A stretch of 64,000 nucleotides of DNA from an uncultured virus (IMG/VR IMGVR_UViG_3300042886_000689) (IMGVR_UViG_3300042886_000689), one strand, 5' to 3'. Positions 10,799-58,625 are shown, numbered from the stretch's first letter. Notes: generated from the sequence alone by a model not told the origin. Translations and numbers: made by a program.

Positions 10799-11149
10799 TT
10801 AGTCGTTTTCGTCAATAGCAACAAATTCTAGTGACTTAGAGAAAGCTTCAACCTTCTCATTAAATCTTATCACTTTTTGTTTTACATCATACTTACATCT
10901 TCTTCCGGCCATCTTGCAAAGCTTGAGGATTGCAATCTTCCATTCAGCAAAGTTTTCGGCTTTGGTGCAAATCATTCCGAATCTTTCCTTGTCCCATTCT
11001 TCTTTTTCAATATCTCTTGAGTTATCTGATAATGTTTTAAAGCAACTTGCTCCATACGGGCCAGCATCTCCGCACCATTCAGAGTCTTTAATTTTTACCT
11101 GACTACAACTTAATAGTAATAAGCTTATGAAGCCTATCTTTAAATTCAT
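10799..11149 (-). CDS. Cys-rich lipoprotein, possible o-spanin-like protein
   Basis: Lipobox-like LLLLSC after MNLKIGFIS; overlaps the upstream membrane/coiled-coil gene. Confidence 0.55.
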   Translation of the reverse strand: MNLKIGFISLLLLSCSQVKIKDSEWCGDAGPYGASCFKTLSDNSRDIEKEEWDKERFGMICTKAENFAEWKIAILKLCKMAGRRCKYDVKQKVIRFNEKVEAFSKSLEFVAIDEND

Positions 11150-11444
11150 CGCGAGCCTTTTGTAGTTCTTCATCTGTGCTTCCTTTCTTTATTACTTCAT
11201 CAAACTTTTCCACGGCTTCAGTATATTTTTTCTCTTGATACTCAGTCTTAAGTCCTATCATTAAAAGCTCGCCCTCTTCTTTTAATTCGTCGTAAAGAAC
11301 AGAGTAGAGTTTTTCAGCAATATAGATAAAAACAGGATTAACAACTGGAAAGCCTAGTAATGGAATCGAAATAATCACCTTGGCCATGGCCTTCTTGATC
11401 AGAAGGTCAAAGATCATTTTCTTGGCAATTTCATTTGGATTCAT
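11103..11444 (-). CDS. Membrane-associated coiled-coil protein, possible i-spanin-like protein
   Basis: Hydrophobic segment near the N-terminus and charged helical C-terminus; overlaps the lipoprotein gene. Confidence 0.45.
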   Translation of the reverse strand: MNPNEIAKKMIFDLLIKKAMAKVIISIPLLGFPVVNPVFIYIAEKLYSVLYDELKEEGELLMIGLKTEYQEKKYTEAVEKFDEVIKKGSTDEELQKARDEFKDRLHKLITIKL

Positions 11445-11733
11445 TTTCTTCCTGTTTCTTCGGGGCTTTGTAATTTGTCTTTATGATGGGATTTGATTTT
11501 TTATTGTGCTTGGAGTTTTTCTTACCTAGACCGCGCTCCTCTAAAAGCTCTCTTAATTTCTTCTCGTTTCTATGCTCAATTTTGATGTTGGCAATGTCTT
11601 TTAATTTGGCCATCAGTAGCTCCCTATCATCTCGTCTTTGAGATGCCTTCTTCTTGCGAAGAATACGTTTAAGAATAATCACCAAGGGAAAATAATCACA
11701 TTCCACTAGCAATAGACACAATATAATTCTCAT
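11431..11733 (-). CDS. Basic hypothetical protein with KSNP motif
   Basis: Lys/Arg-rich; HNKKSNPIIK. Confidence 0.55.
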   Translation of the reverse strand: MRIILCLLLVECDYFPLVIILKRILRKKKASQRRDDRELLMAKLKDIANIKIEHRNEKKLRELLEERGLGKKNSKHNKKSNPIIKTNYKAPKKQEENESK

Positions 11734-13345
11734 CTTGAGAACATAGCTTTAAGAATTCTTCTTCGGCATAATCAATTGCATCGGGTAAATTGGAGAAATA
11801 TTTAATGTTTTGCGTTTTGGTGCCTGTACCTGATTCAACAATGAATTGCTTTTTATCTTCCATGAGTTTCACGTTATAAAAAGGAAAGTCAGGAAGCTCT
11901 AGGTAGACGTAGTGACCAATAAGGGATTTATAAAGCTGCCACTTTACTTTGATTTTAAAATGCTCAACTCTTGCTACTCTATGCGACTTTGCAATCCTCA
12001 TAGCCGTTTGACTTGATTGCAATTCATATATTCTTCTATCAACCGATTCGGGGTCATAGTCATGTTGGGCATTTCTTGTCCTGTAATCATTGGCACGAAT
12101 TTCTAGGGCCTGAGAAAGGTTTAGTTTTCCACCATCTCGCGTACCATATTCTCTTGGCCCTTTGCGAGGGTTTGATTTAGTCTCAATAATGCTTAAGAAC
12201 CGATAGCGTCCCTTTTTAAGCTCCACGAACTTCTTATCCATTTTAATTAAACCATTCTCATGTTGTCTTTTCATCTTGTCTAAATAATCAATGTCACCAA
12301 TCTGGAAAATCGACCAATGTGATTCATCAATAGGGGTGAGAATTATCTTCTCTGGCTTGTTGTAACAGTATTGAGCTATGAGTTTTTTAATTTCATCGAG
12401 AGATGGAGCCGAAGCGAGTAGTTTTAATTCTTCTTTTTTCACTGGATTGTTCTTTGTTTGTGGCCTGAATGAGTAGCGTTTGGCCATATCTGTTTCAAAT
12501 TTCAACTTGTCTTCATCTAAATGGGAAAGTTCTTTATCTTCCATTAGCTCTTTCTTTGAAATTATACCGTCTACATAATCAAGGATTTTTTGTTTTGTAT
12601 TAGGAGATTTTACAAAAAGGCTTCCGCTATTTAGATACTTGTGCCTTTGAATTGGTAAAATGACCAGATTCATCAGCTTTGCTTTATCAATAACGATTGC
12701 TTTTACGGCATAATTCATCAAAAAAGCCACGCCCATTCTTGTGCGGCCACTAATGGTTTTATAAGTATCACCATCTTTTACAATCATTGGCATATAAAGG
12801 GGTTTGTTACTTCTAAAGCTTTTAGCAAGACCAAAAACATCTTTTGGTGGTGCCATATAGGCCAGCTTTGACTTTAAATCGTCTAGGTCATCAGCTACAT
12901 AATAATCAGGATTTCTTGGATTTAATTGATCTTTAGTTATTTTCTGAACACTTGAAATTTTTGGCAACATTTCAAACATAGTGTCGCGCCATTCTTGCTC
13001 ATCGGCTTTTTTGTTATAGGCACTACTAAAAAAGAAGACAATATTCTCAGAATCCCATTCGTGGTCAAATTCTTCTTTAGTTAATGGAATCCAAGCATTG
13101 TAGAATTGAGTAGGATTTGATTTTATTGTTTTATTCTTAGTAATCTGATTATAAACCTCAAGATAATAGGGTTTATACATAACTGGTTCCCATTCTTCTT
13201 CGTAGGCATTTTGAACGTCAACTTCTGAGAAAAAATCGTCAAAGCTCATTCCTCGAATTTCGGCAACTTCAAAGCTGGCCAAAACATCATTTTTGACCAA
13301 TGACAAAGTTTCTTTATTTAGATGCTTGATATATTTTTTCGCCAT
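11696..13345 (-). CDS. Multi-domain NP-linker protein with ParB/Srx-like domain
   Basis: KSNP, KNNP and KSNP linkers; PMIVKDGDTYKTISGRTRMGVA resembles the ParB-N core. Confidence 0.7.
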   Translation of the reverse strand: MAKKYIKHLNKETLSLVKNDVLASFEVAEIRGMSFDDFFSEVDVQNAYEEEWEPVMYKPYYLEVYNQITKNKTIKSNPTQFYNAWIPLTKEEFDHEWDSENIVFFFSSAYNKKADEQEWRDTMFEMLPKISSVQKITKDQLNPRNPDYYVADDLDDLKSKLAYMAPPKDVFGLAKSFRSNKPLYMPMIVKDGDTYKTISGRTRMGVAFLMNYAVKAIVIDKAKLMNLVILPIQRHKYLNSGSLFVKSPNTKQKILDYVDGIISKKELMEDKELSHLDEDKLKFETDMAKRYSFRPQTKNNPVKKEELKLLASAPSLDEIKKLIAQYCYNKPEKIILTPIDESHWSIFQIGDIDYLDKMKRQHENGLIKMDKKFVELKKGRYRFLSIIETKSNPRKGPREYGTRDGGKLNLSQALEIRANDYRTRNAQHDYDPESVDRRIYELQSSQTAMRIAKSHRVARVEHFKIKVKWQLYKSLIGHYVYLELPDFPFYNVKLMEDKKQFIVESGTGTKTQNIKYFSNLPDAIDYAEEEFLKLCSQDENYIVSIASGM

Positions 13346-13412: not shown

Positions 13413-13928
13413 ATGAACACAGATGCTAATCCCCCACCGAATAGTAGAATCCTGCCATTTTTCATGGTGATCTTGGCCCTAACAGGAGCGTATTTTTTGA
13501 ATTTTCGTAAAGTACGCTCCTTTTCCAATCCGCGCAAGGGGGGATGGGGAAAAAAGAAAATACAAGCTTATAATGAGAAGACTGGAAGCCGCTTAAAACA
13601 TGGCGTAGACCGTGACCCCAAGACGCTTTCAGACTTAAAGAGGAAAGGCTCGTGGGCCACTAGGCACTATAAGAGAAAGAACGCAACAGGGCTGAATCAG
13701 GCCCGATTAAAGGATGAGAAAAGGGAATTAACACCTTTTTCTACTCAAGCAATCGCATGGGGCGAGAAGCCGCCAAAAACCCGAAAAGATCAGAAGAAAT
13801 TGGTAAAGCTCGGGGAAAAACTTTTAAAGACCTATCAGAAATATAAAGAAATGGGATTGAAACCGAATAGTGTACTTCCTGAATCGGTTAGAAACCAATT
13901 CAGGAAAGGATTAAGAAAGAAAGTGTAA
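13413..13928 (+). CDS. Basic protein with N-terminal TM helix and SNP motif
   Basis: ILPFFMVILALTGAYFLNF then RSFSNPRK; highly basic remainder. Confidence 0.7.
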   Translation: MNTDANPPPNSRILPFFMVILALTGAYFLNFRKVRSFSNPRKGGWGKKKIQAYNEKTGSRLKHGVDRDPKTLSDLKRKGSWATRHYKRKNATGLNQARLKDEKRELTPFSTQAIAWGEKPPKTRKDQKKLVKLGEKLLKTYQKYKEMGLKPNSVLPESVRNQFRKGLRKKV

Positions 13929-14016: not shown

Positions 14017-14472
14017 TTAAATCTTTATTTTTCTAAAATCGTTAGTTTCGTAAAATTTTCTAAATTCTGACTTCAAATCGCTTGGAATATAATTCAATCC
14101 ATTTCCACTAAGTATGTCTTCTTTTATCTTGTACGTTAAATCGTCTGAATCTGGAATAACGAAGCAATGAAATGGCTCATTGGCATTTATGGCCGCAATG
14201 GCTCTATGCCTTCCTTCATGGCCAGTAACTTGGCCATCAAGCATTACTCGAAGATATGGAAATAAGTCGGAATCATCTTTGTGATGACTATCATATTCTT
14301 CAAAAGTGGCAACCTTCTCGCTCAGTCTTAAAATAAAGCTATCACTTGGAGTAGTTAATCGAAGAAAATCGGTGGGGCTGATTTCGATAATGCCAAGACC
14401 GTACCGATCTTGGGCATTTAGCTTGTGATATTTTGATATGTAATATGGATTTCTTCTTGTCCGATATTTCAT
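14017..14472 (-). CDS. ParB/Srx-like domain protein with N-terminal RRNP leader
   Basis: MKYRTRRNP; ISPTDFLRL; PYLRV...TGHEGRHRAIAA. Confidence 0.7.
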   Translation of the reverse strand: MKYRTRRNPYYISKYHKLNAQDRYGLGIIEISPTDFLRLTTPSDSFILRLSEKVATFEEYDSHHKDDSDLFPYLRVMLDGQVTGHEGRHRAIAAINANEPFHCFVIPDSDDLTYKIKEDILSGNGLNYIPSDLKSEFRKFYETNDFRKIKI

Positions 14473-16454
14473 TTTCTTCCGCGTTTTATTATTAATTTTC
14501 TGACTTCTCTCATTTCTTCAGGATATGACTGACCAGCAACATATCGCCACTTCCCATTGTCCTTGATTAGTCTATCGAAAATTCCAAAACGAGGGATAAG
14601 GCTTGAGTGTTTGGTCATTGCCTCTCTTACATCGTTATAAGTAGCCGCTCTACACTTATCGCAGATTAAAGAAACTAATTGATCAATATCGTCTTCTTTT
14701 AATTTCTCACGGTAATTGTTGAAGTTAATTTGCATATTAGAAGGATTTGATTTTCTTTTTGAGCGCGATCTTTTACTTGGCTCATCAGCTTCAGTGAGAT
14801 AAACATCAGTTCCCTCTAATTCGATAACGCCCATCAACTCACTGGCCATCCACTCAGCATACTCATCGGCATCAACACAGCGATTTTGATCATCGACATA
14901 GCAATCTTGATCACTATCATACTTGTAATCAGAGTCCTTAATATCAACACTTCCAAGAGAAATTTCAGCATCAAAGTATCGACCATCAATCTCGACCTTA
15001 TTTCTGACAAACGCGCTATATTCATAAACGGTATAAGACGACTTCTCAACTTCTACAGGGGTATTTTTTAGAATAGTCTGAACATTTTTAGGAAGATTTA
15101 AGAATGATGTGTAATATGTATCAGACTTGAAAGTGCTATGAAGTTTTACAGGATTCTTCTTTATCTTCTTCGGCATCTGAGAGCGATGAACAACTTTCGC
15201 TACAGCGAAACGTCCCCTATCTTCTTGGCGTGATTCTTTAAAGTCATCCATGGCATCTGATTTATATGTCCAGCGAGAGATAATTTTACCGTCCTTGTCC
15301 AATGAATAGTAATTGTTTCTGTCATCACGGTCTTCGCTGATTGGATTCCCCTTAGATACATGATCACTAGAAGCCCCAAGCATTGACTTACCCTTTTCCG
15401 TCAATCCAATAGTAATGTCTTTCGTGAACGTAAGTTTTGGATTTAGTACAGCAATTCCTGACTCAAGAAGATTTCGATAATGTTTTTTATTGTGAGCTAG
15501 GTTTCCTTTCAGCATCCATATCATGTGAGTTCCCATGCTTTGCCAGTCACAGATAAGCTCCATTTCAATTTCTGATAAGTGGATACCTTTTAGAATTGGA
15601 TTCCCCTTTCTACTCATTCCTGCCTTCTTAAGTGCAATCGCTACGGCTTGTTTCTGTGGTCGTCCCGAGTGCATAAGTTCAGAGATGTTCTGGCCGATAA
15701 CTTTACGAGATTTGCCTGAATGAAGGGGGTTTGATCGAAGCATTGCGTCTGTTATAACAGGTGGAAGGCTCCCTGATTTAAACATCTCTGGATTATCATA
15801 TTGTTCATCAAGGCTTTTATGAATGGAAAGAAACTCTCTGAATGTCTTAGGTGGTTCATAATCCATGTAGTCTTGGGCGGCCTCAGAGATGATCTCGCTC
15901 TTTTTGTCGTCAGGGTAAACTTTTTTGATAAGAACTCTGTAATCATTACCATTATACAAATCAAACATATCTTTTGTTAAAACAGGTGAGCCTTGTGCTT
16001 TTCTCATCATTCGACTAATCGGTTTCCCTAGGGTTTTTTCAGCATACCGAACAGCAATATCATGCAAATCTTCATTGCTTAATTTAATAGATGAAACTTG
16101 GACAATATAGACTTCAAAGAGGCCAACCGGCGATTTGAAAATATATTTTGAAATTCTATTTTTCTTTTTTGGGAGGGGGTTTGATTTCAGCTCAACATCT
16201 TCATTTTCTTCCCAGTCAACCAATTCACAACTGGCCCTGTCGCCATACACATCAACAACATAAGAAGCACACCCTTCGTCACAATAAAGAGAAAACTCTT
16301 TATTGTTCATGGCCACGGCATAGCAATGCCATTTACTGCCATCGACTTCAACTATAAAGTTTGCATCAACTTCACACGCCTTCTTGGTTGAAAGTGAATT
16401 TTCGACACATTCTTTAAGTGATTTAAGAGCAGAACCTTTTTTTATCGGCTTCAT
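14469..16454 (-). CDS. Multi-domain NP-linker polyprotein-like protein
   Basis: Six basic-x-NP linkers (KSNP, RSNP, KGNP, KGNP, KKNP, KSNP) separating unrelated segments of roughly 45-150 aa. Confidence 0.8.
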   Translation of the reverse strand: MKPIKKGSALKSLKECVENSLSTKKACEVDANFIVEVDGSKWHCYAVAMNNKEFSLYCDEGCASYVVDVYGDRASCELVDWEENEDVELKSNPLPKKKNRISKYIFKSPVGLFEVYIVQVSSIKLSNEDLHDIAVRYAEKTLGKPISRMMRKAQGSPVLTKDMFDLYNGNDYRVLIKKVYPDDKKSEIISEAAQDYMDYEPPKTFREFLSIHKSLDEQYDNPEMFKSGSLPPVITDAMLRSNPLHSGKSRKVIGQNISELMHSGRPQKQAVAIALKKAGMSRKGNPILKGIHLSEIEMELICDWQSMGTHMIWMLKGNLAHNKKHYRNLLESGIAVLNPKLTFTKDITIGLTEKGKSMLGASSDHVSKGNPISEDRDDRNNYYSLDKDGKIISRWTYKSDAMDDFKESRQEDRGRFAVAKVVHRSQMPKKIKKNPVKLHSTFKSDTYYTSFLNLPKNVQTILKNTPVEVEKSSYTVYEYSAFVRNKVEIDGRYFDAEISLGSVDIKDSDYKYDSDQDCYVDDQNRCVDADEYAEWMASELMGVIELEGTDVYLTEADEPSKRSRSKRKSNPSNMQINFNNYREKLKEDDIDQLVSLICDKCRAATYNDVREAMTKHSSLIPRFGIFDRLIKDNGKWRYVAGQSYPEEMREVRKLIIKRGRK

Positions 16455-16466: not shown

Positions 16467-16982
16467 TTAGTAATCCATTTCTTCTTCATCTCTGGTTTCA
16501 CCAATATACTCACCATCGTCATCAGTCTCGATATATCTAATTACCTTCCAGAGACAAACCAATAATGATAAACCTTGCTTTGAAAAAAATGAAGAAAGCC
16601 TATCCGCTCCCTCGATGGCCTCATCGCGATCACTAAATTGCAAAACTTGATAAGCATCAACGTCATGAATGGTTATTTCATAGTGTGTTTCGGCTTTGTG
16701 AGGATTATTTTTTCTTCTGGTGGGTTTTTTCTTTTTTGAAGCAGGATTAGAGCTACTTTTTCTAACGTCACGATTATAACAGCTACCATCTTCAAACATC
16801 ATATCATAACTGCCATCGGGTCTAATATAACAAGTGAAAAGAAAATCTCCATCATGTGTATAAAATTTTGTACCATCGTATTTATCAAAGTCAAAATCCC
16901 TGAGTGATTCTTTGATAAGGATTTCGGCTTCAAGCTTATTGTGAACTCTTTCTTTTATCATAATTACCTCTAGTATTTCCAA
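16467..16982 (-). CDS. Two-module NP-linker protein
   Basis: Central KSSSNPASKKKKPTRRKNNP linker; acidic C-terminal module. Confidence 0.7.
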   Translation of the reverse strand: MEILEVIMIKERVHNKLEAEILIKESLRDFDFDKYDGTKFYTHDGDFLFTCYIRPDGSYDMMFEDGSCYNRDVRKSSSNPASKKKKPTRRKNNPHKAETHYEITIHDVDAYQVLQFSDRDEAIEGADRLSSFFSKQGLSLLVCLWKVIRYIETDDDGEYIGETRDEEEMDY

Positions 16983-18250
16983 TCTCTTGTTCCGAAAACA
17001 TCACCCAATGAATAGCTTCCGTAATCAATCATGTTGATAAGTTCTCTAGCTTTCTTGACTTTAATTGTGTGATTTCCTTTCTCGACGTAATGGCCAGAAC
17101 CATTCATGCCATCATGGATATAAAGAACACAAGTCCCACCAATAGAGATTGACTCATCTCTCATAACGGCTTCATATAATTCTTCTGACTCATCAGTAAT
17201 GATTGCTATTCCTAGTGTTCCACCTTGAGAGTTTAAATACACTTCTTCACAGTCAGCCTTTGAAAAGCCATGCTTCATTCCAAGTTTGATAACCTTTTTA
17301 AGCTCGTTTTTTGCCTCTTTTCCAGCATTGTATGGCCCCGCAAGATAATTATCTTCCGAGTAATATTTCGAGCCCGACCTGTAACCTTCAAGCGAGTTTG
17401 GGTCAGTGACAAACAAAGGAGATGGGAATTTCCAGTTATAATTTGCAAGTTCTTCATACTTAAAACGCATTTCATCTCTTAGATCAAACGCTAATTCAGA
17501 ATCAAGGTCTTCCAGTTCTTCAAATTCCTCTTCGGCATTTTCCTTCACCCAGTAATTAGCGTTTTCTGATGCCATATCAGCTACACCATCGAGCAATTGA
17601 TAATTATCAGTTCCAACATCTTCGCCCGACTTGAGTGCATCTACATAATCTTCGATTTCAATTTCGCCATCTCTATAATCAAAAACGTCCCATGAATAAT
17701 GCTTATCAGAGTTGAATTCTTTGATAATACTATTGTAAAGCTCTTTAGCTCTTGATTCAGGGTTTCTTCTCATTCGCGGATTTGATTTTGTTTTCTTGCT
17801 ATAAAACTCAGCTTTTAATTTGCTTGCTTGTTCTAATTTTTTAATGGCCTCTACTCTAGGCAGAGACTCAGCTTGCTTTAGCAAATTATTATACCTTTTA
17901 ATGAAAGAATCTTTTGTCATTGAGCTTGGATTCTTCTTAATCTTTCTCTTTGCCCAAGTAATTCCATCTTTAAATTCCATATCGCCTAAATACCATTGAC
18001 CTTTAACCTGAGAAATTCTCGGAAAATCCATTCCAAGCATATATTCAAGTTGAGTAAGGGCATTATTAATAGCTGTTTTGGTTGTTGGAGTTTGCCAACC
18101 GCCTGAAGTAAGCCTGATGCTTCCCTTGTTCTTGTCGTAAACAACCACGTTTGTTTGGTGAAGTGTTACAATGATTTCATTGGGAGAATTAGTGATTCTA
18201 ATGTTTCCGAATTTTTTAGATTTTCCAATGTCAAATGATCTTGCGCTCAT
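16970..18250 (-). CDS. Multi-domain NP-linker protein with acidic C-terminal module
   Basis: N-terminal GGWQTPTTKTAINNAL module; KKNP, KSNP and RRNP linkers; Asp/Glu-rich C-terminus. Confidence 0.75.
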   Translation of the reverse strand: MSARSFDIGKSKKFGNIRITNSPNEIIVTLHQTNVVVYDKNKGSIRLTSGGWQTPTTKTAINNALTQLEYMLGMDFPRISQVKGQWYLGDMEFKDGITWAKRKIKKNPSSMTKDSFIKRYNNLLKQAESLPRVEAIKKLEQASKLKAEFYSKKTKSNPRMRRNPESRAKELYNSIIKEFNSDKHYSWDVFDYRDGEIEIEDYVDALKSGEDVGTDNYQLLDGVADMASENANYWVKENAEEEFEELEDLDSELAFDLRDEMRFKYEELANYNWKFPSPLFVTDPNSLEGYRSGSKYYSEDNYLAGPYNAGKEAKNELKKVIKLGMKHGFSKADCEEVYLNSQGGTLGIAIITDESEELYEAVMRDESISIGGTCVLYIHDGMNGSGHYVEKGNHTIKVKKARELINMIDYGSYSLGDVFGTRDWKY

Positions 18251-18264
18251 ATATTCTCCTTAAA

Positions 18265-19542
18265 TTATTCTTTCATTACAATTATGCCTAGGCCAGTTTC
18301 TTCATAGTTTCCATCGTAATGACTTAGAAAATGAGCTTCACCATCTTCTTGAACAGCGGCTTCGGCTGCTGATTCAATGTCAATGCTTACGAATGATGCT
18401 TTAAGGTAGTCTTCTTCTGAGTAGGCACCAATTTCATTCACGAAATAATTCATGGCATCTTTTTCAAGCTCGTTGTAAACATAATCATAATGATTATCAT
18501 ATAAAGCTTCTCTCATTTTGTCGTAATCTGGCTCGGCCACTTCGATATTATTTTCGGCCCAATCAAGAAATGCTTCTAGTCTTTCTTGTTCTCCTTTGTC
18601 GTGAGAATCGGGGCTTTTTTTAACAGCTTCAATATTCTTTTCAATTTCATAGATTAAGTCATCTTTATCATCAATCCTTCCAGAAGATGAAAGCTTGTAA
18701 TGCTCTGTGAATTGACCGCCATGCCATTCGGCTGCGATTTTCGTTGCATCGTCATCTATTTCTTTGCTTCCAATATTGTAATACACACTATAGTCATCAA
18801 TATACATTTTTTCATCAGCACCGCCTTCGTACAAGGCATCTCCAACTTCTTCTTCATATTTTTCAAGAACTTCGTCTTCGTCTAAATTGCTTGTGTAAGC
18901 CTCTGCTTCTTCCCCTGCGATAAGTCTCTTGTCGGTATCAGTAATATAGGTATGGTTTTGAAGCCATTCTTGATTAAATAATTCAGGCTCATCTTCGAGT
19001 GTCTGAGTGACTGAATCAATTGCAATATCATGAAATTCATCAAAGCTTGGAATAAGGTTAAATTCCTCACCATCAACCGTAACACTGTAGCAAGTACCAT
19101 AGCTTGAATATCTTCCATTATCGTTTAGAGATTCTTCGATTTCTTCAGCAATTTCTTTTTTTGCTTTGCTAGAGAATTTCTTATGGAAAAATTCAACAAG
19201 GTCTTTTTTAACCTTTGCTGAGTCCATATCAATTGGTTTTTTCACTGGGTTGCTCCTAGTTGGATTATTGAGTTTTGAATATTTGGCGATTTTTGCTTTT
19301 CTTGCTTGGGCGTATTCTTTTTTGAAATTCTTGAGAAACCATTTACTAAATTCTTGTTGATTTTTAAAGGCGGTATTGAATTTATTTTTTGCTGCTATGA
19401 ACTCGGGCATCGCTCTAACATGGTCAGGCGTTAATCCCATAGGCCCTCTACCGAATTTATCAAAATATCTTAATTCCTCAGAAGCCTCGTCAACGATTTC
19501 TGCCAAATTTTTCCTAGTCGCTTCTGCTTCTTGATAAGTCAT
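18265..19542 (-). CDS. Multi-domain NP-linker protein; highly acidic, possibly ArdA/Ocr-like DNA mimic
   Basis: N-terminal GPMGLTPDHVR module, LNNPTRSNP linker, very acidic C-terminal region ending IDIESAAEAAVQEDGEAHFLSHYDGNYEE. Confidence 0.6.
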   Translation of the reverse strand: MTYQEAEATRKNLAEIVDEASEELRYFDKFGRGPMGLTPDHVRAMPEFIAAKNKFNTAFKNQQEFSKWFLKNFKKEYAQARKAKIAKYSKLNNPTRSNPVKKPIDMDSAKVKKDLVEFFHKKFSSKAKKEIAEEIEESLNDNGRYSSYGTCYSVTVDGEEFNLIPSFDEFHDIAIDSVTQTLEDEPELFNQEWLQNHTYITDTDKRLIAGEEAEAYTSNLDEDEVLEKYEEEVGDALYEGGADEKMYIDDYSVYYNIGSKEIDDDATKIAAEWHGGQFTEHYKLSSSGRIDDKDDLIYEIEKNIEAVKKSPDSHDKGEQERLEAFLDWAENNIEVAEPDYDKMREALYDNHYDYVYNELEKDAMNYFVNEIGAYSEEDYLKASFVSIDIESAAEAAVQEDGEAHFLSHYDGNYEETGLGIIVMKE

Positions 19543-19970: not shown

Positions 19971-20534
19971 TTATTTCTTCCTGTAAAAATACATTACTGT
20001 TAGTGAGCCGACCAAAAGAAACGAGATAAGCTTCATCTGGTAGGCCTGTCTTTCCTTCGTAACTCTTTCGTATTCCAAAATTTGTGCTGTATCGTCTACG
20101 GCACCCATGCCCTTTCTTCGGGCAAGAACATATCGAGTATAAAGGTTTTTAATTCTTTGAACTGGTGATGATTGCATCTGGCCAGCCTTTAGTTTTTCTG
20201 GTTTTTTTAGCTCAGGAATACTATCAATAAAATACTGCCAAGGAATTTCGATACCTGATGGCACTACATTTAAAAAGTCTGCTATTTGGGTATTCCGTTC
20301 TTCTAGGGTATATGGAATATTTGGATTTGATTCTCGGGTAGGATAAAGGAGAGTGACAAATTTTCTAGCAAGCGGATTTGAGAAGTTCTTCATATTCCCA
20401 GAAGCAGTTTTAGCCGCTCTGGCAGGAATCTTTTTAATGATTTTTGCCACATTAGGCCTAAGGCCCGTAACTTCTACAGCAAAGTTCCCTTCTGTGTAGA
20501 TTTCTGGTCTTGGAAAAACAGTCATTTTAGTCAT
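19971..20534 (-). CDS. Tail-anchored membrane protein with SNP motifs
   Basis: FSNP, ESNP, KGMGA; C-terminal TM followed by RKK. Confidence 0.7.
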   Translation of the reverse strand: MTKMTVFPRPEIYTEGNFAVEVTGLRPNVAKIIKKIPARAAKTASGNMKNFSNPLARKFVTLLYPTRESNPNIPYTLEERNTQIADFLNVVPSGIEIPWQYFIDSIPELKKPEKLKAGQMQSSPVQRIKNLYTRYVLARRKGMGAVDDTAQILEYERVTKERQAYQMKLISFLLVGSLTVMYFYRKK

Positions 20535-25171: not shown

Positions 25172-26092
25172 ATGATTTCCGATAAAATTATTTATTGTTT
25201 GAACTCAGCCGCCGTTGGCGATCTTATGGCCGCGGCACCAGTCGTTAAGTGGATGATTAATTCATTTCATAAAAACCAAGATTACAAGGTTGCAATATTT
25301 GAAGACTTTAAAGATTTATTTCCGTTTGTGCCTCAAGACAAGTTTATTCCTCTGGCAGCTTCATACGATGGTTCATTCGCTGTTAGACAACTCAATATGT
25401 CTGGGGTTGGTGGAAATATTGCTCGCTTAACTCCCTCACGAGTAAAGCTCACTCAATACGCCTCGATTGGGCTTGCTTCTAGGGTCTTGCCCGATTCCCT
25501 ACTTGGCTACGTTCCACTCGAAGAAGTTGATGTTTCTCATTATGGAATTGATTTTTCAAACTGTGCCATTTTTCTTACGACTTACAGGGATATTACCCGA
25601 GCATGGAAGGGCGAAGAAATTCAAAAAGTAGCTGATTACGTTTTATCTAAAGGCATTACTCCTGTTTTCGTTGGAAAACGTGGAGCTATTAGCATCTGGA
25701 AAACGCTTGCGAAAACTGATTTTGAATTTAATGGTGTTGGTGTTAATTTGATTGATAAGACGACATTTAAAGAATTGTATTCGGTTATGAATAAGGCAAA
25801 GGTCATTTTCGGAATTGATTCAGGCCCACTACATATTGCATTTTCGACTAATACGCCGGTCGTGGCAGGATTTACGAATGTTCACCCGATGTACAGGGTG
25901 CCTTTTAGAGGCGATGCCCGAACTGAGTCTGTTTTCCCTAAAAATGTTGATTGTAGATTTTGTCAAAGTAATTGGAACTTGGATTTTCATAACTTTACTA
26001 AGTGTCCTAGAAAGCTTGACGAGCCAGAATGTACTGAGAATATGAAAGCTGAATATTTTATTGAGGCGTTTGAGAAACTAGGTTTGCTTTAG
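25172..26092 (+). CDS. Glycosyltransferase family 9 (heptosyltransferase-like, GT-B)
   Basis: AVGDL, RAW, NLIDKTTFKEL, GIDSGPLHIA, C-terminal CxxC...C...C. Confidence 0.85.
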   Translation: MISDKIIYCLNSAAVGDLMAAAPVVKWMINSFHKNQDYKVAIFEDFKDLFPFVPQDKFIPLAASYDGSFAVRQLNMSGVGGNIARLTPSRVKLTQYASIGLASRVLPDSLLGYVPLEEVDVSHYGIDFSNCAIFLTTYRDITRAWKGEEIQKVADYVLSKGITPVFVGKRGAISIWKTLAKTDFEFNGVGVNLIDKTTFKELYSVMNKAKVIFGIDSGPLHIAFSTNTPVVAGFTNVHPMYRVPFRGDARTESVFPKNVDCRFCQSNWNLDFHNFTKCPRKLDEPECTENMKAEYFIEAFEKLGLL

Positions 26093-26258
26093 TAGCAATG
26101 TAGTTTTTAAGATTATTCGAGATCACCAAAACACCTGAAACAATCATGATTGATTTAAGCGTTGCCGAAGGCAGCTTTGTTCCGGCATAGATCATGAATG
26201 GCCCAAGAATTAGAACGTCTATGATTCTCATTCCTTGTGATTTTTGAACTTCAATCAT
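26058..26258 (-). CDS. Small two-TM membrane protein
   Basis: Two hydrophobic helices. Confidence 0.6.
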   Translation of the reverse strand: MIEVQKSQGMRIIDVLILGPFMIYAGTKLPSATLKSIMIVSGVLVISNNLKNYIATKANLVSQTPQ

Positions 26259-26548
26259 TAGAGGCCAGCTTTTATGAGTTTTGAGTAGTATTTCTTATCT
26301 TCGCTTAAGTGATCTAAAACAATCTCCCGAGCAATGCTTTTATCGTTCGTATGCTCCATCTCCACCTTGATTCCCATAGCAAACTCTTTAGCATTAACAT
26401 CTTTACGTGATAATCGGTCGCCTTTGCCGCCCACAAGGCGGTTTTGCGGAGTCTTGGCATCATAAGCAATCATCCAATAGCAAGCCGCATAGAAGGCGGT
26501 TAAAATGATTATTGACTTGGGCGAAAAATTGTATTTTGAGTAATCCAT
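26258..26548 (-). CDS. DUF5661-like protein with N-terminal TM helix
   Basis: GGKGD...MGIKVEMEHT...AREIVLDHLSEDKKYYSKL motif. Confidence 0.7.
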   Translation of the reverse strand: MDYSKYNFSPKSIIILTAFYAACYWMIAYDAKTPQNRLVGGKGDRLSRKDVNAKEFAMGIKVEMEHTNDKSIAREIVLDHLSEDKKYYSKLIKAGL

Positions 26549-26572
26549 TCATTTATAATAGCAAATTCAAGG

Positions 26573-26603
26573 AAAAAAGAAAGGGAGCCGTGGCCCCCTT
26601 TCT
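26573..26603 (-). terminator. Intrinsic terminator
   Basis: Minus strand agaaagggggccacggctccctttct followed by a T-run. Confidence 0.7.
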
Positions 26604-26609
26604 AGTTAA

Positions 26610-27395
26610 CTAGTTATCCAAAACTTCAATTTTCCCAATTACGAAATATCCACCGGCACAGCCACCAACCCACGTTATTGACTGGCCACTAGCATTGGTA
26701 GCATTGGCAACAAATGTCGCTTCAAGATACGAGCCAACGGCTGCATCAATCTGAACGGCAGAAAAAGATGCTACTGTTCCGGCACCGCTTTCTGGGCCAA
26801 TATAGAGACTTGCGCTATATGCACCGGCACCACTATTGGAAGTTTCTTTTACATAAACTCTAACCTTATAAGTCTCGCCCTCCACAAATGTTACAACATT
26901 AGCGCGGTTGAAATAGTATCCATCTCCTGCACCTGATTGATAGATGGAAATTCCACCATCAACGTAAGCGCAACTTCCGTATCTTTGTTCGTATGATTGC
27001 TGACCATTAGGATTAGCGAAATCCCTTGTGTACAATGGAGCCGCTGAATCAAAATTAACCACGAAGTCGGCCTGATCAAGTGACGTTGAAGGCACTCTGA
27101 ATGAGCCATTGTTAAAGTCAACAATGGTCATCGAAATAGCTTCAAAAACATCTTTCGATGGAGAGATAACAAGAAGCGAGCCAGTAGGAGAAACTTGAGT
27201 AGCATCAAAGTTTACAGTCAGCATTTCATTGTCTGATGTACTCTTGTAATTGATGATTACTTTTTTCCAGTTAGCTGAATCACCATACCATGCACTCGCG
27301 ACAACCACCGGCAAAGCAGCTAAAGCCGCTTTATCGAGTGTGAAGGTGATTGGTGCGTCTTTGCCTATTGGGGACGATTTTGTAATGATTGGCAT
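26610..27395 (-). CDS. Spike/decoration paralogue (IITK N-domain plus beta-sandwich-like C-domain)
   Basis: MPIITKSSPI N-domain shared with neighbours; beta-rich C-terminus. Confidence 0.75.
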   Translation of the reverse strand: MPIITKSSPIGKDAPITFTLDKAALAALPVVVASAWYGDSANWKKVIINYKSTSDNEMLTVNFDATQVSPTGSLLVISPSKDVFEAISMTIVDFNNGSFRVPSTSLDQADFVVNFDSAAPLYTRDFANPNGQQSYEQRYGSCAYVDGGISIYQSGAGDGYYFNRANVVTFVEGETYKVRVYVKETSNSGAGAYSASLYIGPESGAGTVASFSAVQIDAAVGSYLEATFVANATNASGQSITWVGGCAGGYFVIGKIEVLDN

Positions 27396-27418
27396 AAAAA
27401 TCCTTTTTTATCCACTTT

Positions 27419-28696
27419 TTAAATATTTCTAATTTCAATTTTATTAAAACTAAGTGTGCAAGGTGTAGCAAAGAAAGGATATAGTGATAAGAATTGATCT
27501 GCCCCATCCGTTATAGGGCCTGTAAACTCAATATATCCGTCGGCCAATATCAATGTGTATGCAGCGGCCCCTAATATATCTATAAACCCTGCTAAATTAA
27601 GATTTGCTCTGACATAAAAGTCATCATTTAACGTACCTGATTCAAGGGCATAATAAACACGCATTTTGTACGTTCCACCAACAAATTGCGGATCATTAAT
27701 TTGAAACGTATAAGTTTTGTCATTATCATTTGATACAGATGTAAATACAATTTTATTTGTATCAAATGAAGTTCCAACCCCTAAATTGGCACCGACAATA
27801 TCCCCATCAGCAAAATCATGCTGCCATAAAACAGAAGGAGGCTCAACCAAAGTTGCCGAGTTCATAAGCCCTGATAAATTTGGCAAGCTTGTCATTAAAT
27901 AAATAGGATCAGAATTATTATCGGTAAATCTGACAACATTATTAAATGTAGCCGTAATAACTCCCGATACTCTTGATATACTGAATGAAAAGGTGGCAGG
28001 ATTGTAAAGTTGCACTGACCCTACATTGGTTGCTGTATCTCCTATTCCTGCCAATTTCTCAACCTGAGCAAAACCCGAATTGTTACTAATATTTAGTGCC
28101 GTATTAAAAAGACTATTATATCCAAGTCCTGCCTGTGGAACAGTTCTCCTGTAGCCAATAAAAAGAGATGTGCCTACGGAAAAAGTAGGAACCTCGCCAC
28201 TGAAAACAAAGTCACCAGTAACTAGATTGCCATAATAGGCAGTATTATCAACGTCACCATTTGATCCTCCCGCTCTGTGAAGCTCACCATTTCCAGCCGT
28301 GGCAATAGTTGGTGCTAAGAAAACGTCCCATAGGGATACAGGAGCAGCATTAAAGTCAACAACAAACTCGGCTTGATTAAGTGAGCTTGTTGGTATCCTC
28401 AATGTCCCTTGGTTGAAGTCCTGAATCGTAATTGAAATAATATCAAAAACATCTCTCGAAGGAGATATTGCAAGAAATGAACTCGTTGGAGTCGCAAGCG
28501 TGGCATCAAATGATACAACAATCATTTCATTTCCGAGTGAACTTCCATAATTTAAAATAACTTTTTTCCAGTTTGCATCATCAGCAAACCAAGCATCGGC
28601 CACAACTACAGGCAAAGCCGCTAGTGCCGCTTTATCGAGTGTGAAAGTGATTGGTGCGTCTTTAGCAATGGGAGAAGATTTTGTAATGATCGGCAT
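27419..28696 (-). CDS. Spike/decoration paralogue (IITK N-domain plus lectin-like C-domains)
   Basis: Same N-domain; C-terminal beta-rich modules (FSFSISRVSGVITATFNN). Confidence 0.75.
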   Translation of the reverse strand: MPIITKSSPIAKDAPITFTLDKAALAALPVVVADAWFADDANWKKVILNYGSSLGNEMIVVSFDATLATPTSSFLAISPSRDVFDIISITIQDFNQGTLRIPTSSLNQAEFVVDFNAAPVSLWDVFLAPTIATAGNGELHRAGGSNGDVDNTAYYGNLVTGDFVFSGEVPTFSVGTSLFIGYRRTVPQAGLGYNSLFNTALNISNNSGFAQVEKLAGIGDTATNVGSVQLYNPATFSFSISRVSGVITATFNNVVRFTDNNSDPIYLMTSLPNLSGLMNSATLVEPPSVLWQHDFADGDIVGANLGVGTSFDTNKIVFTSVSNDNDKTYTFQINDPQFVGGTYKMRVYYALESGTLNDDFYVRANLNLAGFIDILGAAAYTLILADGYIEFTGPITDGADQFLSLYPFFATPCTLSFNKIEIRNI

Positions 28697-28708
28697 ATAT
28701 TCCTTTTA

Positions 28709-30019: not shown

Positions 30020-30233
30020 ATATTCCTTGTTTGTTTGGGCGGTCACAAGATTTTATCCTTGTGACCGTGATCATACCCTTTGAAGTCAATAATTCAGAAG
30101 GGCATAATACTTATTCATTGTTGATCTTCGGTTTTGTCCGTATGAATGGGCAACATATATTATACTAAATTTCAGGATTTAAAGGTAGGTAAATAAGAGG
30201 CGAGAAAGAGGAGAGACTAAATTAATCAACATT

Positions 30234-30259
30234 AAAAAGGGAGGGGTTTCCCCCTCCCT
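30234..30259 (-). terminator. Intrinsic terminator
   Basis: agggagggg/cccctccct stem with an A-run on the + side. Confidence 0.8.
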
Positions 30260-30309
30260 GAGAATCAAAGACGAATCCACTCTCAGAACTTAATCCAAGA
30301 GGGGTTTTA

Positions 30310-31914: not shown

Positions 31915-31934
31915 AATTCCCTCCAAGGAATTTT

Positions 31935-31965
31935 AAAAAAGAGCAGGGAGAAATTTCCCTGCTCT
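31935..31965 (-). terminator. Intrinsic terminator
   Basis: agagcaggga/tccctgctct stem with an A-run on the + side. Confidence 0.8.
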
Positions 31966-31997
31966 GATGCAATTATAATTCAAGCCTTTTTGATTAA

Positions 31998-32348
31998 TTA
32001 AATTAAATTAACGTCAAATTCGCTCGTAGTTAGACTTGCTCTGTAAATTGTAAGTATTCCACCATCGAAATCAATAATGTTAATTAATTGAACTTCAAAT
32101 ACGTCTTTGGCGTGAGTTGAAACCAAGAAGCTCGCAGTTGGATTTGATAAAGTGGCATTAAATTCCACTGACTCATATTGCTTTCCAACGGAACTCTTGT
32201 ACACAACCATGACCTCGCTCCAGTTTTCCATATCTAAAAAGTAATCATCTGCAACCACTTCAGGGTGTGCCGCAAGTGCTGACTTAGAAAGAGAGAAAGA
32301 CGCTGGTACGCCTTTTTGAATTGAGCTTGGCTTTGTAATTATAGACAT
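31998..32348 (-). CDS. Stand-alone IITK-domain protein
   Basis: MSIITKPSSI...; AGGAGG RBS; consists only of the shared domain. Confidence 0.8.
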   Translation of the reverse strand: MSIITKPSSIQKGVPASFSLSKSALAAHPEVVADDYFLDMENWSEVMVVYKSSVGKQYESVEFNATLSNPTASFLVSTHAKDVFEVQLINIIDFDGGILTIYRASLTTSEFDVNLI

Positions 32349-32377
32349 AAAAACCTCCTGTTAATTATATTTTTTAA

Positions 32378-32539: not shown

Positions 32540-32547
32540 AATTTCTC

Positions 32548-35226: not shown

Positions 35227-35255
35227 AACTTTCCTTTTTATATTAATGAATCATT

Positions 35256-47631: not shown

Positions 47632-49410
47632 ATGGCACGTACAAGTACGGAAACAAAATCCAAAAAAGCCCCATCTAGGGCCGTAATTGCAAAAATTGCG
47701 GAAGAAGCAGGGAAAAAAGCAGCTAAAAAAGTCGCTTCTAAAATTGCTCACGATGAAGCCAGTAAAACAGCTACAAGAGTCGCTACACGCGCAGCCCTTG
47801 ACCCTGACTACACTTCAAACACTGACATTGAAGAAGATGACCAAGATTACAATCCTCGTTATGGGCGCGTAAACTACCTCGAAACAGAAGAAGAAGAGGA
47901 AGAAGACGAAGACAATGACTCAGGCTTTACACTGAATCAGTATGGGCAACAATCAGGCAGCGATGACCTTTCAGACAATCCAAGATCAACCGATATTTTT
48001 AGTTACGGTACAGAGCTTTTAAATAAAGGCACTCCAATCCGTTTTCAAATTAAAAAGAATGGCCAGTTCTTAACCACAGTTCGTGAGCCATACTCAGAAG
48101 ATCGCCTTCAAAAAGATCACGGCGAAGGTCACTATGCAGTTATTCTTCGTAACGATGCCAAAGGCACATTCATTAAGCAGCAATCTTTTTCAGTTGCGGC
48201 ACCGACCGTTAAGCACGAGGAAATCGTTAAAGCTAAGACAGATGAGAAGCTAGACCGTATGTTTGAAACATTTGGTCAGATGCAAGAAAGAACACAAGAC
48301 ACCCAAGCACAATTGTTTGACCGCATAATGGAAGAACAAAGACGTAGAGAAGATGAAGAAAAAGAACGCCGAAGAGAGGAGAGAGACAGTATGAGACAAC
48401 AAGAACAACAAAACCAAAACCTACTTGCTACCGTTTTACAGGCTTCACTATCTAATAAAAAAGATGATGGTGGCGGTAACATGGCACTTCTTCAAATGAT
48501 GCAAGCTCAACAACAACAAACAGCTAATCTAATCATGGAATCAAATAAGAACTTCATGACTATGATTCAAGAAATGCGTAGAGACACTTCTACTATGATT
48601 GATAAAATGAGTGAATCTCAAAAAGATCAAGCTCGTGAGTTCAGAAATCAGATTGAAAAAATGGCAGGGTCGAAGAAAGAAGGCTTCGATGCGGTAGAAA
48701 TGTTCAAGATGCTAAATGATACTCGTGAATCAGGTATGCAATTTGGTCTTCAAATCAATGCCCTTGCAAAAGAATTGTCAGATGCAGGAGAAAGCGAAAA
48801 AGAACCAAAGGGTTTAACTGAAACAATTATTGAAAACCTTGGAAAACTTGCCCCATTGATGCTTGCCGCTGGCCAGAATCAAGGTCAAGCACCAGCACAA
48901 CAATACTTTGAGCCTCAACAACAACAATTGGTAAACGCACCAGCGGCTCCATCGTATAAAAAAGCAAGTGCTGCACCAGTTCGTCACGCCCAGCCACAAA
49001 CCGTAGTGGCCCAACCAGTGGCTCAACAAAATGCTCCACAAGCCCAAACAGATGCTCAAAGAGTAGCTAAAAAAGTTGTGGCAAAAGCTTCGGTTGCAAG
49101 AAGTTCGGAAACTGCTACAATAGACGCTAACACTTCTGTAAAAAAGACAGTTGTTGACATTTGTGCATCACTAATCGGTCATGCTCTTATGAACAATGTC
49201 TCTTCAGGAGATTTGGGCGATGCAACTATTAAGGCACTAGCTGAGAAAAACATCTCAACATCAAAAGCTTTAGAATTGTTATCCCTAGATGATATTTATC
49301 ACTTGAGCTTTACGGTTTACACCCTTCCAGATGTACCCGAGCTTCGAGTTTATCTGAAGGATTATCATGATTATCTCAAAGCCAAAGCATCCATTACGCA
49401 ATCTCGGTAA
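47632..49410 (+). CDS. Large acidic/coiled-coil protein, first gene of the structural module
   Basis: Basic AKK N-terminus, poly-E tract, GEGHY beta domain, Gln/Met-rich coiled coils. Confidence 0.8.
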   Translation: MARTSTETKSKKAPSRAVIAKIAEEAGKKAAKKVASKIAHDEASKTATRVATRAALDPDYTSNTDIEEDDQDYNPRYGRVNYLETEEEEEEDEDNDSGFTLNQYGQQSGSDDLSDNPRSTDIFSYGTELLNKGTPIRFQIKKNGQFLTTVREPYSEDRLQKDHGEGHYAVILRNDAKGTFIKQQSFSVAAPTVKHEEIVKAKTDEKLDRMFETFGQMQERTQDTQAQLFDRIMEEQRRREDEEKERRREERDSMRQQEQQNQNLLATVLQASLSNKKDDGGGNMALLQMMQAQQQQTANLIMESNKNFMTMIQEMRRDTSTMIDKMSESQKDQAREFRNQIEKMAGSKKEGFDAVEMFKMLNDTRESGMQFGLQINALAKELSDAGESEKEPKGLTETIIENLGKLAPLMLAAGQNQGQAPAQQYFEPQQQQLVNAPAAPSYKKASAAPVRHAQPQTVVAQPVAQQNAPQAQTDAQRVAKKVVAKASVARSSETATIDANTSVKKTVVDICASLIGHALMNNVSSGDLGDATIKALAEKNISTSKALELLSLDDIYHLSFTVYTLPDVPELRVYLKDYHDYLKAKASITQSR

Positions 49411-49960
49411 ATTACCAGATGCTAAGAATGGCACCGTTGGAGATGGGATTATCGGAAACGTAGACACCATCAAAATTATGACAAAAATGGCGCGAGAGGG
49501 TTCAAAAAACCCTCTCGTTCGTCGCCTTGCAACAAATATTCTTAACCACGACAAAATTCCATCTCATTATTATTTAGAAGAAGCCCGAGCAATCGGCAAA
49601 TTTGTACAGTCGCACGTTCGCTATGTGAAAGATATCGCCGGTGTCGAGACTCTTCACTCACCAGATATGCTCATTAGAATGATGACTGATGTAGGCTATA
49701 CGGCGGCTGATTGCGACGACATGGCTCTTTTGATTGCCTCTATGCTACTTAGCATAGGTATTGTTCCAAAGTTTCGTGCCGTAAGGTACAACTCGCCTAC
49801 AGGCCCCTACAATCATATATATGTAGTTGTTTACGAAAATAATATCACTGACACAATGTCACCAAGTCCTACAAAAAGACTTGCCCTTGATGCAATTGTA
49901 AAAGATCGCCCAATGGGTTTTGAAGTTCCTCACTCAAGTGGCGATGAATTTGATGTTTAA
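49367..49960 (+). CDS. Transglutaminase-like Cys-His-Asp enzyme (candidate maturation protease)
   Basis: VRYVKD..GVETL..P, ADCDD (Cys), NHIYVVV (His), LALDA (Asp). Confidence 0.85.
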   Translation: MIISKPKHPLRNLGKLPDAKNGTVGDGIIGNVDTIKIMTKMAREGSKNPLVRRLATNILNHDKIPSHYYLEEARAIGKFVQSHVRYVKDIAGVETLHSPDMLIRMMTDVGYTAADCDDMALLIASMLLSIGIVPKFRAVRYNSPTGPYNHIYVVVYENNITDTMSPSPTKRLALDAIVKDRPMGFEVPHSSGDEFDV

Positions 49961-50423: not shown

Positions 50424-50426
50424 TCC

Positions 50427-51083: not shown

Positions 51084-51085
51084 TT

Positions 51086-57209: not shown

Positions 57210-58625
57210 ATGGATTTGCAAATTTTGTATAATAATCCAAGTAGAAAGAAAAAATCGTTTAGATCAAAGCTTAATCCATCAAAAAGATTAAAAGCTTCCA
57301 AGAGAAGTAAGCTTCGCTCCTCTGGTAAGTCATTCTTTGGCATGAAGAAGAATCCTACTACTGGCAAAGTATCATTAATAGAAAGAGCGTTAGGTGTGTT
57401 CAAAGCTAAAAAAGAAGAAATTCTTAATAAACCAAAGGAAAAAATCGTGGCTAAGAAAAAAAAGAAGTCAACAAAGAAAGTTGCTAAAAAAGCAACTAAA
57501 AAAGCAACTAAAAAAGCCGCTCCGAAAAAAGCGCGTAAAAAAGTTGCTAAAAAAGCAACAAAGAAAGTTGCTAAAAAAGCAACAAAGAAAGTTGCTAAAA
57601 AAGTTGCCCCTAAAAAGGCTAGAAAAAAAGCAGCTAAAAAAGCAGCTAAAAAAGCAGCTCCGAAAAAAGCGCGAAAAAAAGCGAGTAAAAAAGCTCGTAA
57701 TAAAGCAGCTAAAAAAGCTGGCACTTTACCACCGCCAATTCCTACTGCTTCTAACCCTAAGAAGAAAAAAGCTCGTAAAGTTAGAAGAAAAAAAGGTTCA
57801 AAGAAGTCATCTTCCAAGAAAAAATCTTCTAAAAAGAAGAAAGCAACAAAAAAGAAAGCAACAAAAAAGAAAGCAACAAAAAAAGTTGCCAAAAAGTCTA
57901 CTAAGCCTAGCTATAAAAAAGCTATGAAGAGTAAATCTCGTAAGTCGAAGAAGAATCCATCGTATAAGAAGAAAAATTATTCATTAAAAAACAATCCAAT
58001 CGGAGGAGCTATGTCAAAGGTATCAAAATTTACAAAAAATGTTCTAGCACATGATCTTGGTGAAGCTGGTGGTCTATTAGCTGGTGGAGCGGCAATCCAA
58101 GGGATTCGTCACCTTCAAGCTAAATTTGCCCCACAATTAAGCTCAACTATCGCTCAAATTCCTTTGATCGGTAATTTCCTTGCTTCTAACCTTGATGCAA
58201 TCATTCCTTTGACTGTAGGTGCTATTGCTCACAAATACGTTAAAAATGCTAACGTAAAAATGCTCGCTAAAGGCATCATCGGTGCTTCAGTAGTTGGAAT
58301 CGGTTCTAAAATCTACGCTTCAGCCGCTCAAATGGCCGGTGCTAACATGGCAGGAATCATCGCTGTTCCTTCTATGAACGGAATTATCGCTGTTCCTTCA
58401 ATGAACGGTTTCGGAGCAATGAAAATGACTAACGATTTCGGTTCATCACCGGCTTCGATTTCATCTTCTGACTTCGGTGCATACGGTGTTGGTCTATCTG
58501 GTGAAGGTGGATACTTACAAGATGCTGATTTTGATTCTGCTGGCCCTCGCATGGTAGTTGCTCGTCAACCAGATTCATTAAACGGTTACGAAAATGTTGA
58601 TTACGACGATATGGGTGAATTTTAA
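57210..58625 (+). CDS. Histone H1-like AKK-repeat DNA-binding protein fused to membrane helices and a DFG-motif tail
   Basis: AKK/ATKK/KKVAKK repeats, six NP motifs, hydrophobic helices, MNGIIAVPS repeat, NDFG/SDFG; GGAGG RBS. Confidence 0.85.
   Translation: MDLQILYNNPSRKKKSFRSKLNPSKRLKASKRSKLRSSGKSFFGMKKNPTTGKVSLIERALGVFKAKKEEILNKPKEKIVAKKKKKSTKKVAKKATKKATKKAAPKKARKKVAKKATKKVAKKATKKVAKKVAPKKARKKAAKKAAKKAAPKKARKKASKKARNKAAKKAGTLPPPIPTASNPKKKKARKVRRKKGSKKSSSKKKSSKKKKATKKKATKKKATKKVAKKSTKPSYKKAMKSKSRKSKKNPSYKKKNYSLKNNPIGGAMSKVSKFTKNVLAHDLGEAGGLLAGGAAIQGIRHLQAKFAPQLSSTIAQIPLIGNFLASNLDAIIPLTVGAIAHKYVKNANVKMLAKGIIGASVVGIGSKIYASAAQMAGANMAGIIAVPSMNGIIAVPSMNGFGAMKMTNDFGSSPASISSSDFGAYGVGLSGEGGYLQDADFDSAGPRMVVARQPDSLNGYENVDYDDMGEF
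57460..57900 (+). repeat. Low-complexity Lys/Ala-coding repeats
   Basis: Repeated aagaaagttgctaaaaaagcaac and aaagaaagcaacaaa units. Confidence 0.9.

Follow-up and report, generated by a model that had tools for sequence, protein, structure and literature searches.

What does a repeated Asn-Pro (NP) motif do at the joints of a viral mosaic protein, and, if the chain is cut there, which bond is broken? The question is raised by a 64,000-nucleotide stretch of DNA from an uncultured virus (IMGVR_UViG_3300042886_000689; hereafter the window), in which a sequence-only reading had noticed a small phage protein embedded in a longer one and beginning exactly at the Pro of an NP motif, and had taken this to point to cleavage between Asn and Pro (N|P).

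The embedded module and the seams around it

The longer protein is a 661-aa mosaic encoded at 14469..16454 on the minus strand. It contains eight NP motifs, comprising six seams of the form basic-x-Asn-Pro, with Asn at aa 92, 242, 285, 370, 434 and 570, and two non-basic motifs at aa 221 and 338. The peptide quoted in the earlier reading corresponds to 15595-15737 on the minus strand (aa 240-286). Its bracketing by two NP motifs was borne out; the interval proposed for it, 15615-15740, ends six residues before the second NP, and the size, put at about 45 aa, was measured as 43 aa. The module, a small basic segment delimited by the PHROG 2423 profile and 105 short homologues, runs from P243 to N285 (15600..15728, minus strand). 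Upstream lies the seam R-S-N-P (15726..15737, minus strand; N242 at 15731-15729, P243 at 15728-15726), whose Pro is the native residue 2 of the module. Downstream, the seam R-K-G-N-P (15597..15611, minus strand; N285 at 15602-15600, P286 at 15599-15597) closes the module, as an NP does in most NP-class copies.

A profile search matched aa 243-284 to positions 2-43 of the 52 positions of PHROG 2423 (E 3.5e-12), a family annotated as function unknown; because the match begins at position 2, P243 is the residue next to the Met of the family. The small phage protein described in the earlier reading as starting MPLKKG and containing KQAVAIA is a real family, and the stand-alone homologues beginning MPL that it predicted were found: a search among proteins of 23-76 aa returned 105 short homologues, 92 of which start MPL, and the other 13 start MSP, VSP or MIMP or carry an internal M-P-L behind a longer called start. 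The native Pro was in register in all 105, and in 142 of 143 homologues from two protein searches in which Pro was not a requirement. In the best 80 of 561 confirmed IMG/VR loci, the residue preceding Pro was Met in 71 and Val in 9, and a recount of the codons gave ATG in 70, GTG in 9 and one mis-parse. The embedded module is up to 83% identical to stand-alone copies. Stand-alone members of PHROG 2423 are genes starting Met-Pro; here the module is internal, with Asn replacing Met and an NP seam replacing the stop, and is thus an embedded member. The alignment of the seam Pro with the native start is exact and general. The N|P cut drawn from it fits these data as a prediction, as a cut one residue earlier (x|N-P) may also do.

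The module had no Pfam, NCBIfam or PDB sequence match, and a search for solved structures of it found none. The whole 661-aa ORF gave no Pfam match at E 0.01, and PHROG 2423 was its only PHROG match. Extending the Pro comparison to the other inter-NP segments, as the earlier reading had proposed, did not yield a second module with a native Met-Pro start, and PHROG scans of 30, 27 and 25 proteins returned no second family with a profile that starts at a seam Pro; other library-matched modules start from a few to about 20 residues past a seam, without a native Pro start.

The seams exceed chance. The 661-aa ORF has 8 NP motifs against 1.3 in shuffled sequences, and none of 2000 shuffles reached 8. 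Basic-x-N-P occurred 20 times against 1.2 expected in nine window ORFs that were picked post hoc for NP content, and 2 times against 2.0 expected in 27 other window ORFs. Among 190 distinct NP contexts from 40 proteins, Lys or Arg stood two residues before Asn in 66%, and basic residues were enriched after Pro too; the residue just before Asn was variable (S 28%, K 16%, R 14%), as was the residue following the Pro. The K-G-N-P seam at aa 368-371 (15342..15353, minus strand, codons read) has 14 identical bases in common with the seam at aa 283-286, one of two seam pairs in this ORF that share 12 and 14 identical bases; the 14 common bases are likely a trace of recombination between seams. Across 20 seams, however, the motif is encoded by 7 synonymous codon pairs, which suggests that selection acts on the peptide. 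The seams thereby share a feature of protease-processed virion polyproteins, a conserved motif between domains that is under selection as a peptide.

NP motifs recur in neighbouring genes. On the minus strand, a 549-aa ORF has five (11696..13345), an ORF at 14017..14472 opens with a short basic leader ending in an NP at aa 8-9 without an upstream domain, and three NP-seamed ORFs (16467-16982, 16970-18250 and 18265-19542) occupy 16467..19542, their PHROG 554 and 7560 modules stopping shortly before the first NP. On the plus strand, the product of 13413..13928 has a hydrophobic N-terminus, an NP at aa 39 and a DUF6321 domain from aa 41 (profile position 4), and a Lys-rich protein with six NPs followed by a hydrophobic C-terminal part (57210..58625) is a probable core or membrane precursor.

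Capture of the module and the residue before its proline

The 38 longer homologues comprised 15 with N-P-L internally (the window and 14 relatives), one with D-P-L, 21 with a Met start and one divergent sequence; N-P-L was present in all 14 embedded copies of the relatives. Relatives of the 661-aa ORF carry the same neighbouring modules in differing orders, joined at NP, and in one of them (P0108) the PHROG 2423 module is joined directly to the module that lies behind the aa 368-371 seam here. When six window ORFs were compared with 18 relatives, 35 of 44 internal alignment ends fell at most 8 aa from an NP against 8.7 expected, many of these ends coming from the PHROG 2423 module alone. Where the ORF continues, NP-class copies have an NP behind the module in 29 of 32 cases; for Asp-class copies the figure is 1 of 9, and for Met-class copies 4 of 45. 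These results show that a stand-alone Met-Pro-Leu phage protein was captured into mosaic proteins of this virus group, its own Pro serving as the Pro of a basic-x-Asn-Pro seam, and that the captured module, with a second seam behind it, has been shuffled as a unit between seams. A retained Met behind the upstream NP was found in none of 15 NP-embedded copies, none of the embedded copies examined had an additional Pro following the seam, and start Met residues just after seams showed no enrichment (5 of 66, with 8.2 expected). In L177 (2070-4846), closely related to the window's virus, two neighbouring ORFs hold the module as two separate NP-embedded copies.

We then scanned IMG/VR, metagenomes and GTDB for N-terminally extended copies, requiring the Pro and a preceding codon without T in its second position, a rule that excludes start codons and also Phe, Leu, Ile and Val. 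At least 126 distinct copies were recovered from at least 176 matches, with at least 120 matches in metagenomes; among those listed, 77 begin M-x-P (60 with Ser) and 9 are one-base variants of the start codon. True extensions among the matches listed numbered at least 40 distinct copies, and the residue before Pro was Asn in 28 and Asp in 12, i.e. Asn or Asp in 40 of 40.

The Asp copies lie in the head regions of tailed phages; the proteins that hold them have x-x-Asp joints, which often flank the module at both ends, and a DUF2213 protein adjoined the Asp copy in all three cases tested. In phage AP22, the annotated head maturation protease has the PHROG 2423 module as its Met-Pro N-terminus. 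The two joint systems thus each appear to seat a constant residue immediately before the native Pro, as N|P and D|P cutting would require. In four loci (L110, L114, L117, L136), an Asp-bracketed module was observed in Asp-jointed cargo proteins between MuF-like and DUF2213 genes, and one of these proteins also carries an RMF-like module. A related Pbunavirus capsid protein is resolved only from residue 66, two past D64 of the A-M-D64-S65 sequence. According to the available portions of the structural reports, residues 1-65 are unseen and may be cleaved or disordered (PMC10329688, PMC11456595), a choice that the E217 authors, in those portions, left undecided. Literature searches for a demonstrated Asp cleavage site returned only indirect statements, among them that a capsid N-terminus is missing (PMC3496638).

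In six distinct copies from tailed phages, a leader ends in E/D-N-P-L and no NP-rich polyprotein accompanies it; the module's Pro may thus just have a preference for Asn or Asp in front of it. This preference may have structural reasons; Asx-Pro turns are common. The 77 distinct M-x-P-L starts among the matches listed also show that the native Pro need not be N-terminal. The leader is conserved and about 23 aa long in the tailed-phage small-gene copies (L081, L083-L086, L088, L090).

Short leaders also occur in the NP viruses. Seven of the 22 NP-type copies (L151, L245, L253, L254, L262, L264, L270) have only a basic leader of 4-13 aa ending with Asn before the Pro. Since removal of Met would suffice to give the same start, the motif in these copies would serve more than domain separation, unless they are remnants of gene fission. 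Leaders of this kind are found at the start of the window ORF 14017-14472 and of ORFs in L177, the close relative. A hydrophobic N-terminal stretch precedes the first NP in L179 and L223, and in L082 an NP behind a hydrophobic stretch is followed by short Arg tails.

The history of capture was assessed with a tree of 40 columns and 91 rows, from which 8 near-duplicate NP rows had been dropped and for which 45 of 275 Met-class rows had been sampled. The tree requires 8 changes and has only 2 starred branches. A single clade of Asn and Asp copies was marginally rejected (p-AU 0.047), so the two captures were probably separate events. A single clade of all NP-virus copies was not rejected (p-AU 0.35), so the 22 distinct NP-type sequences may descend from one capture.

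Whether and where the seam is cut

We consider cleavage of some kind at the seam rather probable. Its assignment to the bond between Asn and Pro, which we prefer, is tentative, with our confidence a little short of even. The exact register and the constant Asn or Asp before the native Pro favour N|P and disfavour a cut after Pro, which would strip a near-invariant residue and is the least likely bond. We propose that the basic-x-Asn-Pro seam would act as a recognition tag for virion cargo and that a virus-encoded enzyme would also cut it during particle maturation, between N242 and P243. A 43-aa basic peptide would be released, with the N-terminus of the free gene product after Met removal; the initiator Met of Met-Pro proteins is removed. 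As a weaker suggestion, this peptide would lie in the particle interior and probably bind DNA. The tag for packaging would thereby double as the maturation cut site, like the capsid-targeting leaders of T4. The annotation of gp41, gp43 and gp44 of the cultured virus SSIP-1 as structural bears only indirectly on whether the substrates are in the particle. In its full form, the proposal states that a large group of tailless bacterial viruses, including SSIP-1, has an undescribed Asn|Pro-specific maturation enzyme, that a four-residue tag loads and releases interchangeable cargo modules, and that PHROG 2423, captured twice with its Pro at P1', marks both scissile bonds; taken whole, it is a possibility that we advance with reserve. 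The idea of a cut is thereby narrowed to one predicted bond and one peptide.

The seam could instead be an uncut docking or packaging tag, a possible but rather unlikely reading, in which every module brings its own tag, fusions keep them, the Pro is shared because it is structurally needed, and the change from Met to Asn is the shortest route to a tag. Leaders ending in NP without an upstream domain and the basic residues on either side of NP agree with such a tag, and the M-x-P-L starts and tailed-phage N-P-L leaders agree with a Pro that is not obligatorily N-terminal. One tag per chain should do, however, yet internal seams flank the module on both sides (29/32), and the parallel Asp system adjoins head-maturation proteases.

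If the cut fell before Asn instead (x|N-P), the products would start with Asn-Pro and would likewise retain the Pro. The module tolerates S-P-L and N-P-L starts, and ORFs beginning M-N-P exist in these viruses (11103-11444 in the window and two in L206). We nevertheless regard this cut as unlikely, since the residue before Asn, which would occupy P1, is as variable as described above, variability that is unusual at a protease P1 position, and since the constant residue of the Asp system occupies the place of Asn.

As for the enzyme, at least four putative candidates are encoded in the window. One candidate is a transglutaminase-fold protein (49367..49960, plus strand), identified from an alignment of 71 sequences, a structural model and homology to SSIP-1 gp34. 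Cys116 and His150 are invariant in the 71 aligned sequences, and Asp175 is present by consensus. The model (pLDDT 94) matched 3kd4 (Z 13.7, rmsd 2.9, 143 aligned). The protein also matched LapG (E 1.8e-4) and SSIP-1 gp34 (E 4e-12), SSIP-1 being the only isolated phage that matched. Among 270 loci, a local HMM of the transglutaminase matched SSIP-1 and 12 loci of the Asn class, which represent about six distinct viruses, and none of the rest; in the matched loci, the gene often adjoins NP-rich genes. This co-occurrence is a weak indication, since the loci compared differ in virus type and in length. A viral-contig scan with the single 49367-49960 protein returned no relatives. In L181 (7182-9728), the transglutaminase gene is apparently interrupted, as judged by eye, at the catalytic Cys motif by a long intein-like insertion.

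This enzyme may not act on NP, because glycine motifs stand directly behind its domain in L082 and in SSIP-1 gp34. G-[MLF]-G, M-N-G and D-F-G motifs occur in six ORFs of the window (motif occurrence, unshuffled) and recur in membrane-type proteins, those of 50037-51672, 56173-56802 and 19971-20534 and the C-terminal part of that of 57210-58625; they were absent from the four NP-seamed ORFs checked. The transglutaminase-fold enzyme may serve the glycine motif instead, and a single virus may have two motif codes side by side. Further candidates are two similar-looking HExxH zincin-type ORFs, which lie far apart (808-1437 and 40988-41569), and the product of 43450-43872, which we take to be a C39-like peptidase; family searches gave no match confirming that label. 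Just upstream of the Lys-rich NP protein, 56799-57197 encodes a conserved 132-aa protein with invariant Tyr64 and His81 and a C-terminal G-I-x-G; look-alikes were seen by eye in L082 and L206, without confirmation by HMM. An enzymatic role for this protein found no support (pLDDT 67, no Foldseek viral match at E 0.001, best Z 3.2).

The same transglutaminase-fold enzyme might take the seam Asn as an acyl donor, in a side-chain cross-link or a transpeptidation, and tie cargo to the capsid or membrane instead of setting it free. Its fold does match factor XIII, transglutaminases 2 and 3 and PNGase (Z 9.5-12.3), and SSIP-1 gp34 is annotated as structural; we judge such a role very unlikely, given that proteases are also among the best fold matches, that no acceptor candidate was found, and that the seams part modules in polyprotein fashion. 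Slighter still is the case for a prolyl-type endopeptidase cutting after Pro (N-P|x), in which the variable residue after Pro would suit a P1' position: this cut would strip a Pro kept in register in 142 of 143 homologues, and no copy was seen with an extra Pro after the seam. That NP is a mere DNA recombination scar, left where short shared sequences happen to encode Asn-Pro, is the least credible account and, as a fixed recombination site and sole cause, was rejected, for although two seam pairs of the 661-aa ORF share 12 and 14 identical bases and several of the 20 largest direct-repeat families listed coincide with seams, the codons vary synonymously, the motif is kept in loci of 33% to 70% GC, and leaders exist with nothing to join.

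Related systems, the virus and SSIP-1

Cleavage at a short motif shared by many virion proteins, carried out by one viral protease at maturation, is established in T4, where gp21 cuts the capsid-targeting leaders, and in adenovirus, whose protease processes basic core proteins. The motifs and enzymes differ, and to our knowledge neither system uses a repeated Asn-Pro joint between shuffled modules. That the Asn-Pro bond can be cleaved in vivo is seen in FlhB/YscU, in which autocleavage of NPTH falls between Asn and Pro; FlhB needs a specific fold round one site, whereas the seams here separate unrelated modules. Picornaviral 2A skipping at NPG-P needs a longer motif, D-x-E-x-N-P-G-P. Neither NPTH nor the 2A motif was present in the window seam contexts or the NP profile.

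In architecture, the ORF resembles the polyvalent proteins of Iyer et al. (2017), in which unrelated domains are shuffled in one chain and proteolytic release has been proposed, as given in the available part of that report (PMC5512222). The 661-aa chain likewise combines several unrelated modules in variable order. The part of the report at hand describes polyvalent proteins as having large enzymatic domains, often with an in-cis zincin (PMC5512222), whereas the window ORF consists of modules of 40-150 aa and has no peptidase, LPD, metallopeptidase or enzymatic domain in its chain. Its joints carry a fixed dipeptide, and a short joint code is not described for polyvalent proteins in that part (PMC5512222). 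In the Asp-jointed head proteins of phages with DUF2213 proteases (Obolenskvirus AP22, Pbunavirus E217 and Pa193), the same module has been captured with the joint residue directly before the Pro; these phages differ from the NP viruses in being tailed, in the fold of the protease and in an Asp joint after which the next residue varies.

Searches of the open-licence PMC and bioRxiv literature brought up no Asn-Pro code for bacterial viruses without tails, and the available portions of PMC5894146 and PMC11161782 make no mention of one. New here are the constraint on the bond, the cross-check by the Asp system and a cultured virus for the test. If the N|P reading is true, the enzyme would have an unusual specificity, useful for removing tags so as to leave an N-terminal Pro. 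For the DUF2213 proteases, which belong to common tailed phages, the same module also provides a rule for the cut that can be tested.

The cultured virus is SSIP-1, a tailless phage that contains a membrane (PMC6356626). In its record, gp34, gp41, gp43 and gp44 carry a structural annotation; gp41 contains two RENP motifs, gp43 one, and gp44 two related NP motifs. Having both the transglutaminase homologue and RENP in structural proteins, SSIP-1 offers a system in which the predicted bond can be checked. It differs from the window's virus in lacking the PHROG 2423 module and in having few seams, with an acidic middle residue. In our set of loci (SSIP-1 = L147), its NP-bearing structural genes lie at 25740-34565 and contain probable seams. 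No solved structures were found for SSIP-1 gp44 or gp45, and the SSIP-1 capsid proteins have no detectable sequence similarity to the capsid candidates of the window.

The window encodes a family B DNA polymerase of the organellar/viral type (7254..9572, plus strand; PF03175, E 4e-56), together with fibre proteins, an endolysin and a Dda-like helicase. Of the ORFs scanned in the window, none matched a terminase, a portal or an HK97 capsid, and there were fibre-type matches only; roughly 8 kb of the contig (71.8 kb) lies beyond the window. A tailless virus of the jelly-roll capsid type is our tentative identification. The region 58756-61380 gave no family matches; in it, two adjacent paralogous ORFs (59415-60782; E ~3e-4, local search), which follow 58756-59355, are candidate capsid genes. 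The DNA is present in lake-water metagenome runs; there were no RNA runs among the sequencing runs listed, and four runs examined showed no joints. The GTDB scan for the module gave two matches, both on MAG contigs, which are not host evidence. An NP virus nearly identical to L082 (L269) occupies a 62-kb contig in a Planctomycetota MAG, a binning that is not host evidence either. Finally, minus-strand ORFs at 26610-35684, round a collagen-like fibre gene, include five to six paralogues that share an N-terminal domain of about 110 aa and are probably spike or fibre adaptors.
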